Virus record (IMG/VR): IMGVR_UViG_2541047790_000011
Strand: one strand, 5' to 3'
Source of the DNA: a virus
Taxonomy: Duplodnaviria > Heunggongvirae > Uroviricota > Caudoviricetes
DNA length: 22,955 nucleotides
Part shown: positions 5,061-5,291 of the stretch, one piece after another
How the letters are laid out: the number at the start of each line of letters is the position of its first letter
Position numbering within the stretch: the first letter of the stretch is position 1
Notes under the pieces: generated by a model
The model's database searches: none
What the model was told of the DNA's origin: nothing
What the model saw: only the letters and a program-made list of their open reading frames with translations
Made by a program: the position numbers and the translations under genes

Positions 5061-5291
5061 GCCCTCTACCCCATCTACCTGAATGAAATAAACGCATATT
5101 ATTCAACATGATAAGTGGGTAGAGGGATAGGTAGAAGGCTAATAAAACCCCTCTACCTCCTCTACCATGATTAAGGTCGTTTGTGAGGGGCGGGTAGAGG
5201 ATGGGTAGAGGGCCACGAAAAGCCCTCTACCCATCTGAAAGCCGCGCCATTACTGACCTGAAAGATGATTAGGTAGAAGAGGTAGAGGAGG
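5061..5291. repeat. Iteron cluster, candidate satellite replication origin
   Basis: About 11 copies of a 9-bp motif GGTAGAGG(G) or its complement, arranged as adjacent pairs in alternating orientation (5062-5079, 5117-5138, 5148-5166, 5192-5212, 5223-5231, 5272-5289), directly after the primase-helicase stop. Confidence 0.75.

Follow-up and report, generated by a model that had tools for sequence, protein, structure and literature searches.

The noncoding gap at positions 5061 to 5291 of the window (the whole 22,955-bp stretch of DNA that was analyzed) is very probably the replication origin of a 14.5-kb capsid-forming PICI. It contains eleven copies of an 8-bp site, arranged mostly as pairs of alternating orientation, and directly follows the gene for the predicted initiator. 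The first-pass annotation had proposed an iteron origin just 3' of its own initiator. This reading is supported by homology to the origin of the PICI EcCICFT073, by the rule for origin placement in PICIs, by the conservation of the sites in relatives, and by their co-variation with the initiator protein.

The satellite element

The chromosome of Escherichia coli SaT040 contains the window at 100% identity, as do those of other ST131-type strains. Judged by its ends and gene content, the element is a 14.5-kb capsid-forming PICI (cf-PICI), a phage satellite that occupies the cspD-clpS interval of ST131-type E. coli. The island is flanked by 11-bp direct repeats of ATGATAGTTAT, which lie 14.5 kb apart at cspD-clpS. 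The attR core is found at 14305-14315 (+ strand), the right end of the island, and the attL copy lies 183 bp to the left of the window start. The same ATGATAGTTAT att core is also listed for cspD-clpS PICIs (PMC6092414 supplement).

In the RefSeq annotation of the identical SaT040 region, the gene order begins with cspD/yljB, an integrase, an AlpA-type regulator, Icd-like genes, and a DUF4222 gene. These are followed by a 582-aa protein annotated as a primase, a small open reading frame (ORF), and a single-strand DNA-binding protein (SSB), and then by the major capsid, prohead protease, portal, head-tail connector, HNH, TerS, and TerL genes, which lead up to clpS. This annotation contains no tail or lysis genes.

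The claim that this is a satellite is borne out by the att repeats together with the other parts of the PICI backbone, namely, an integrase gene (int, 1-1239), an AlpA domain, a pri-rep gene, a rightward unidirectional layout, and a size of 14.5 kb, within the ~10 to 15 kb of PICIs. The island also carries its own capsid and packaging module without tail genes, as annotated in SaT040, and matches the definition of cf-PICIs by gene content and order (Alqurainy et al., bioRxiv 10.1101/2022.09.08.507074). Members of this class are induced by a helper phage and move in small capsids of their own fitted with helper tails. According to the same preprint, cf-PICIs carry the same rep gene as classical PICIs; it makes no mention of iterons.

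An ORF of 302 aa at 1870-2778 (+ strand) is not a single gene in RefSeq, which has Icd-like fragments and YlcI/YnfO on the opposite strand; the final 90 residues of this ORF align with a PHROG family whose annotation is "transcriptional repressor" (E value, 1e-54). Past clpS/clpA, at ~17378-22000 (32079-36700 of L001, the 39.1-kb chromosomal context), a second small insert lies beyond a tRNA-Ser gene. Its genes encode a Mor-family activator, a HicB antitoxin, an IS5 transposase, and several hypothetical proteins, and it is probably a further integrated element, whole or as a remnant.

The repeat cluster

The gap that contains the repeats is 287 bp long. It starts past the stop codon of the 582-aa gene (5048) and extends up to the ATG at 5336 or, if the RefSeq start is used, up to 5399. 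Among the 60 listed of the 543 matching genomes, no RefSeq features are found in the homologous gap.

A pattern search finds 8 exact copies of GGTAGAGG or its complement in the 22,955-bp window, every one of them within 5063-5288. These copies start at positions 5063(-), 5118(+), 5150(-), 5159(-), 5193(+), 5204(+), 5224(-), and 5281(+). The number expected by chance is 0.31 copies per window. Three more copies, each with one mismatch, are in register with the exact ones: GGTAGATG at 5072(-) and GGTAGAAG at 5130(+) and 5272(+). The gap thus holds 11 sites, 8 exact and 3 with one mismatch, whose 8-bp consensus is GGTAGA(G/A/T)G. When up to one mismatch is allowed, the whole window contains 16 matches versus 9.55 expected, and the 5 matches outside the gap are at the chance level.

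The sites are oriented (-,-)(+,+)(-,-)(+,+)(-)(+,+), forming five pairs and one singleton, with a start-to-start distance of 9 to 12 bp within the pairs. The first site begins 15 bp past the initiator stop codon, and the 11 sites span 226 bp. Pair 1 (5063-5079, - strand) consists of GGTAGAGG at 5063-5070 and GGTAGATG at 5072-5079 and is in register in relatives. Pair 2 (5118-5137, + strand) combines GGTAGAGG at 5118-5125 with GGTAGAAG at 5130-5137. Both members are GGTAGAGG in pair 3 (5150-5166, - strand; sites at 5150-5157 and 5159-5166) and in pair 4 (5193-5211, + strand; sites at 5193-5200 and 5204-5211). The single iteron (5224-5231, - strand) is also GGTAGAGG and is a singleton at the equivalent position in nearly all close relatives; CATCTGAA at 5233-5240 may be its decayed partner. 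Pair 5 (5272-5288, + strand) comprises GGTAGAAG at 5272-5279 and GGTAGAGG at 5281-5288. The earlier description of eleven repeat copies, set as alternating pairs in a noncoding gap, holds, with one mismatch in three of the copies and one site unpaired; no gene is found between the stop at 5048 and the next start at 5336 or 5399.

The initiator protein

The Pri-Rep initiator gene (3300-5048, + strand) encodes a protein of 582 aa, in which a variable N-terminal part of ~150 aa is followed by D5_N, the SF3 helicase core (DUF5906), and, at the C terminus, a Pox_D5/P4-alpha-type origin-binding domain. The E values of the Pfam matches are 1.3e-14 for D5_N, 5.1e-10 for DUF5906, which contains the SF3 helicase P-loop, and 3.7e-4 for Pox_D5. 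Residues 193 to 437 match the self-loading SF3 helicase PriRep of SaPI5 (PDB 7OLA; E value, 7e-14), and residues 486 to 574 match the origin-binding domain of the P4 alpha protein (PDB 1KA8; E value, 8.4e-6). This alignment defines the predicted origin-binding domain, which is encoded at 4755-5021 (+ strand) and also gives a weak match to RFX_DNA_binding (E value, 0.0075).

Taken together, the 7OLA, 1KA8, and Pfam matches describe an SF3 helicase initiator with a C-terminal winged-helix domain, the fold of which is modeled at low confidence only. A search for homologous proteins returned only matches that are 97 to 99% identical to the initiator, too shallow an alignment for structure prediction. 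The AlphaFold2 model of the C-terminal domain alone, made without an alignment, has a pLDDT of 54, and only its order of secondary structure elements, three helices followed by a β-hairpin, is used here.

RefSeq calls this protein a "DNA primase family protein." No primase domain was detected in it. For its N-terminal 150 aa, searches of Pfam and NCBIfam give no matching family, and primase profiles of 770 to 855 aa align only from ~position 340 on; by these searches, the "primase" label on the 582-aa gene is therefore a family name only. Of the initial designation of the gene as a primase-helicase, the helicase half is borne out by the SF3 core and the 7OLA match, and the primase half is not.

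Residues 1 to 150 (3300-3749) are the most variable part of the initiator. At least three alleles are found, which are 22 to 66% identical to that of the window in 50-residue bins. The N-terminal domain may serve as an adaptor to replication proteins of the host or the helper.

Comparison with EcCICFT073 and other known origins

In PICIs of Gram-negative bacteria, the origin lies immediately 3' of the initiator gene and has two iteron sets around an AT-rich stretch (Fillol-Salom 2018, PMC6092414). The cluster described here shows the same placement, immediately 3' of the pri-rep gene. In EcCICFT073, a pri-rep-ori fragment maintained a temperature-sensitive plasmid, and deletion of either ori or rep reduced this maintenance; the ori deletion lowered colony numbers and is not described as abolishing them (PMC6092414).

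The EcCICFT073 initiator shares ~87% nucleotide identity and 88% protein identity with that of the window. Its gap (7756-8043 of locus L002) directly follows the stop codon and is 288 bp long, versus 287 bp in the window. It contains 11 sites whose order and orientation equal those of the window site for site. An AT-rich spacer, a GCCGCGCCATTACTG block, and a AAAACTTTTTAAACGAGGGGG block are common to both gaps, and the next genes are the same, a small ORF and then SSB. On the strength of this shared layout, spacer, and blocks, the gap at 5061-5291 is the positional homolog of an experimentally supported origin.

The two elements also differ in several respects. The sites of EcCICFT073 read GGTAGAYA (GGTAGACA or GGTAGATA) versus GGTAGAGG in the window, so that positions 7 and 8 are CA or TA in the former and GG, AG, or TG in the latter. 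Initiator residues 542 and 545 are N and G in EcCICFT073 but A and S in the window. The second and third site groups are divided as 1+3 in EcCICFT073 and as 2+2 in the window, and the N-terminal initiator allele of EcCICFT073 differs from that of the window. Finally, EcCICFT073 is a classical PICI at roxA/pepT-phoQ, whereas the window element is a capsid-forming PICI at cspD-clpS.

The origins of SaPIs are found immediately downstream of rep and consist of 6 to 12 short iterons around an AT-rich center, with at least two iterons on each side, the sides being oppositely oriented; recognition is by a C-terminal winged-helix domain (PMC9371898). In the window, a (-,-) pair at 5063-5079 and a (+,+) pair at 5118-5137 likewise lie on either side of an AT-rich stretch at 5080-5117. 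The likeness to SaPIbov1, SaPI1, and SaPI5 covers the placement of the origin, the iterons around an AT-rich center, and the homologous helicase core (7OLA). However, the iterons of SaPIs are five or six nucleotides long and unrelated in sequence, and the host is Gram positive. The SaPI5 PriRep, with 797 aa, has a primase domain, whereas none is detected in the initiator of the window.

In phage P4, the TGTTCACC repeat occurs in two separated clusters, ori and crr. The P4 alpha protein has 777 aa and an N-terminal primase domain and is regulated by Cnr. Like the element studied here, P4 is a phage satellite of E. coli, with a homologous origin-binding domain in alpha (1KA8) and short octamer-like repeats. 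It differs from the island of the window, which has a single cluster, the repeat GGTAGAGG instead of TGTTCACC, and no detected primase domain.

The P4 arrangement suggests one alternative, that the gap is an auxiliary cis element comparable to crr and that initiation takes place at a separate origin elsewhere in the island. Such a role would fit the homology between the C-terminal domains of the initiator and P4 alpha and the use of separated clusters by P4 itself; in addition, the P4-alpha-like genes of three loci from other genera (L014, L017, and L018) also have iteron clusters directly downstream. It is nevertheless quite unlikely, since a scan for exact sites and GGTAGA in the 39.1-kb chromosomal context shows no second iteron cluster elsewhere in the island. 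The 5061-5291 gap holds all 8 exact copies of GGTAGAGG present in that context and 11 of the island's 13 GGTAGA hexamers, and one-mismatch matches elsewhere do not exceed the chance level. Moreover, pri and the adjacent region of EcCICFT073 were enough for plasmid maintenance (PMC6092414).

As an origin in its own right, the gap would follow the same logic as the origins of papillomavirus E1 and simian virus 40 (SV40) large T antigen, although this is an analogy only. In these systems, an SF3 helicase binds inverted site pairs by an AT-rich region and forms head-to-head hexamers; the origin-binding domains and site sequences are unrelated to those of the window. Iteron plasmids (RepA/pi/TrfA) have tandem repeats of ~17 to 22 bp in one orientation, a WH1-WH2 Rep protein, and, usually, DnaA boxes. 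The alternating 8-bp sites and the SF3 helicase initiator do not fit this type of origin.

Sequence environment of the sites

The AT-rich spacer at 5080-5117 (GC content, 0.30), between the inverted pairs 1 and 2, is a candidate DNA-unwinding region. Its stacking energy, calculated over 30-bp segments, is about -32.6 to -33.7 kcal/mol; the mean for the window is -41.0 kcal/mol, and the cutoff for the least stable 1% is -32.2 kcal/mol. The spacer thus belongs to the least stable 1 to 5% of the 30-bp segments, an instability that is moderate only, with weaker DNA found elsewhere in the window. In relatives, the AT-richness of the spacer is kept despite changes in its sequence.

Two conserved blocks lie among and beyond the last sites. 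The noniteron block CTGAAAGCCGCGCCATTACTG (5235-5255) is invariant or nearly so across both iteron types. The block AAAACTTTTTAAACGAGGGGGG (5305-5326, + strand) is near-invariant in both iteron classes and contains the ribosome-binding site of the next gene. A conserved hairpin in 5235-5270 was considered in a by-eye comparison of relatives and dropped, as the short inverted repeats differ between relatives. An Rfam scan of 4800-5600 detects no RNA family; it returns only two sub-threshold matches to plant microRNAs, which are attributed to chance.

Directly after the putative origin, there is a small gene (5336-5650, + strand) that starts at the ATG at 5336 or at the RefSeq start at 5399. The former start is preceded by a conserved GAGGGGGG ribosome-binding site; the PHROG 1231 profile aligns with the gene product only from residue 22, which corresponds to 5399, the RefSeq start. 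The SSB gene (5647-6072, + strand), identified by Pfam (E value, 1.7e-16) and RefSeq, completes the replication module.

The cluster is located within a unidirectional operon, immediately 5' of the next gene, and ends ~20 bp before the strictly conserved block with the ribosome-binding site of that gene, a position that would also fit a set of operator sites. In that case, Pri-Rep or another regulator of the island, such as AlpA, would bind the sites and control the downstream genes (the small ORF, SSB, and the capsid operon), and the cluster would have no role in replication. A promoter/terminator scan, however, predicts neither a sigma-70-like promoter nor a terminator within the gap. The sites also co-vary with the origin-binding domain of the initiator (see below), and deletion of the homologous region impaired the EcCICFT073 replicon (PMC6092414). 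For these reasons, a purely regulatory function is improbable. Binding of the initiator to the sites of an origin may still have a secondary regulatory effect.

Conservation in relatives

Of 5,426 complete E. coli genomes, 543 (~10%) carry homologous gaps, with some 800 copies in total. A total of 169 loci were compared, taken from IMG/VR, metagenomes, and the genomes of E. coli. The first-pass annotation held that absence of the repeats from otherwise syntenic relatives would refute its reading; all close syntenic relatives that were compared have the cluster.

Columns within the GGTAGA cores of 87 distinct origin sequences have a mean entropy of 0.24 bits, compared with 0.71 bits for the rest of the gap (P = 2.5e-10). 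At site positions 7 and 8, the entropy is 1.23 bits, which is above that of the spacers (P = 5.7e-6). This contrast indicates constraint on the GGTAGA core and concerted diversification of positions 7 and 8 at every site. Slippage can give rise to short repeats, but a chance or purely structural feature, such as a functionless remnant of tandem duplications, is hardly credible when 0 of 100 shuffles reach 8 copies, 87 distinct sequences retain the positions of the sites and show cores more conserved than the spacers, and all eleven sites changed in concert between lineages.

More distant relatives, at ~53% identity, have iteron clusters directly downstream, with GGTATACA or GGTGTTCAT as the repeat, which track the changes in the C-terminal domain. 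A scan of genome contigs returns mostly P4-alpha-like proteins of ~790 aa at 41 to 51% identity. At most Pantoea and Erwinia loci with P4-alpha-like genes, no obvious iteron cluster is found within 450 bp, which has no bearing on the close family.

In relatives whose initiators are ~70% identical (L012, at 3760-4115, and L170, as well as L169 and L173), two iteron modules are found in swapped order. The (+,+,+)(-)...(+,+) half with the AAAACTTTTT block comes first, and the (-,-) AT-rich (+)(-,-,-) half comes second. This swap suggests that the origin is built from two separable modules.

Co-variation of the sites with the initiator

Codons 542 to 545 of the initiator gene (4923-4934, + strand) encode A-E-F-S in the window and N-D/E-F-G in relatives with GGTAGAYA sites and are candidates for the residues that determine specificity. 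In the protein alignment, A-E/D-F-S is found with sites that end in G and N-D/E-F-G with sites that end in YA. Position 8 is mostly G in 45 of the 46 distinct A-x-F-S loci, whereas G makes up no more than 18% at this position in all 48 distinct N-x-F-G loci. Among ~94 distinct combinations of residues and sites, there is one exception (L084), and the association is kept within each of three N-terminal allele backgrounds. The difference is local: 6 of the 12 nucleotides of codons 542 to 545 differ between the types, and the next 37 codons are nearly identical. In the single-sequence model (pLDDT, 54), residues 542 and 545 are placed at the start of the third helix, before the β-hairpin. The third helix is the recognition helix of winged-helix domains.

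Specific binding of the iterons by the initiator is inferred from this co-variation of site positions 7 and 8 with residues 542 and 545, which probably set which initiator allele recognizes which origin. It is plausible that the iteron sequence defines the specificity of the replicon. Codons 542 to 545 lie ~115 bp from the first iteron, and co-inheritance through this linkage could make up part of the co-variation. A more far-reaching proposal, possible though somewhat doubtful, is that the change between A542/S545 and N542/G545 acts as a switch that re-programs positions 7 and 8 (RG/KG versus YA). E. coli PICIs that have one initiator scaffold in common would then be split into orthogonal replicon classes, and the binding domain and the origin would be exchanged as one recombination module.

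The exception, L084 (IMG/VR contig 3300029303_000153), is the sole hybrid found and combines the A..S residues with CFT073-type GGTAGAYA sites in the 330 bp downstream. The C terminus of its initiator (...TTDECDAFL) places the junction between codons 545 and 578. This locus could have arisen by natural recombination or be a chimera of metagenome assembly; if it is not a chimera, specificity is looser than proposed.

Islands can also reside together in one genome. One IMG genome holds one island of each iteron class (L060 and L116). In E. coli S19-651 (NZ_CP075852.1), there are four matching places, two of which were retrieved (L205 at 4.485 Mb and L206 at 0.556 Mb). Both encode identical DUF4222 protein, Pri-Rep, SSB, and PerC, so that one PICI occurs at least twice in this genome. 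A rule by which co-resident islands need different iteron classes (incompatibility) was dropped, as S19-651 holds islands of the same class.

Proposed mechanism of initiation

In the proposed sequence of events, induction of the island by a helper phage would lead to the production of Pri-Rep (encoded at 3300-5048), a self-loading SF3 helicase and initiator. Its C-terminal winged-helix P4-alpha-type domain would bind the eleven 8-bp sites, with the GGTAGA core serving as the common anchor. The paired sites, which alternate in orientation, would present their members about one helical turn apart, with opposite pairs flanking 5080-5117. Protein bound on both sides could then form hexamers at 5080-5117 and melt the DNA, and replication would start. 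Hexamer assembly and opening at the origin have been proposed for SaPI Rep (PMC9371898). Priming would probably be carried out by a host or helper primase. Binding by the initiator, opening of the AT-rich spacer, and the specificity code are parts of this scheme that we infer.

Implications

The type of origin found in PICIs was already known, and a sister origin has been tested in the laboratory. The current picture of satellite replication is unchanged, and the candidate two-residue, two-base switch would be only a modest addition to it. The assignment gives a probable function to a 287-bp stretch that carries no annotation in the RefSeq records listed. It also makes the exact sites available for building or disabling the replicon of the satellite, although the practical gain is small. 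For the family, it indicates that capsid-forming PICIs share their replicon type with classical PICIs such as EcCICFT073. Beyond this, a candidate pair of residues and two base positions in each site may set the specificity between initiator and origin; if this is true, the switch would represent a compact protein-DNA recognition code for SF3 helicase initiators.
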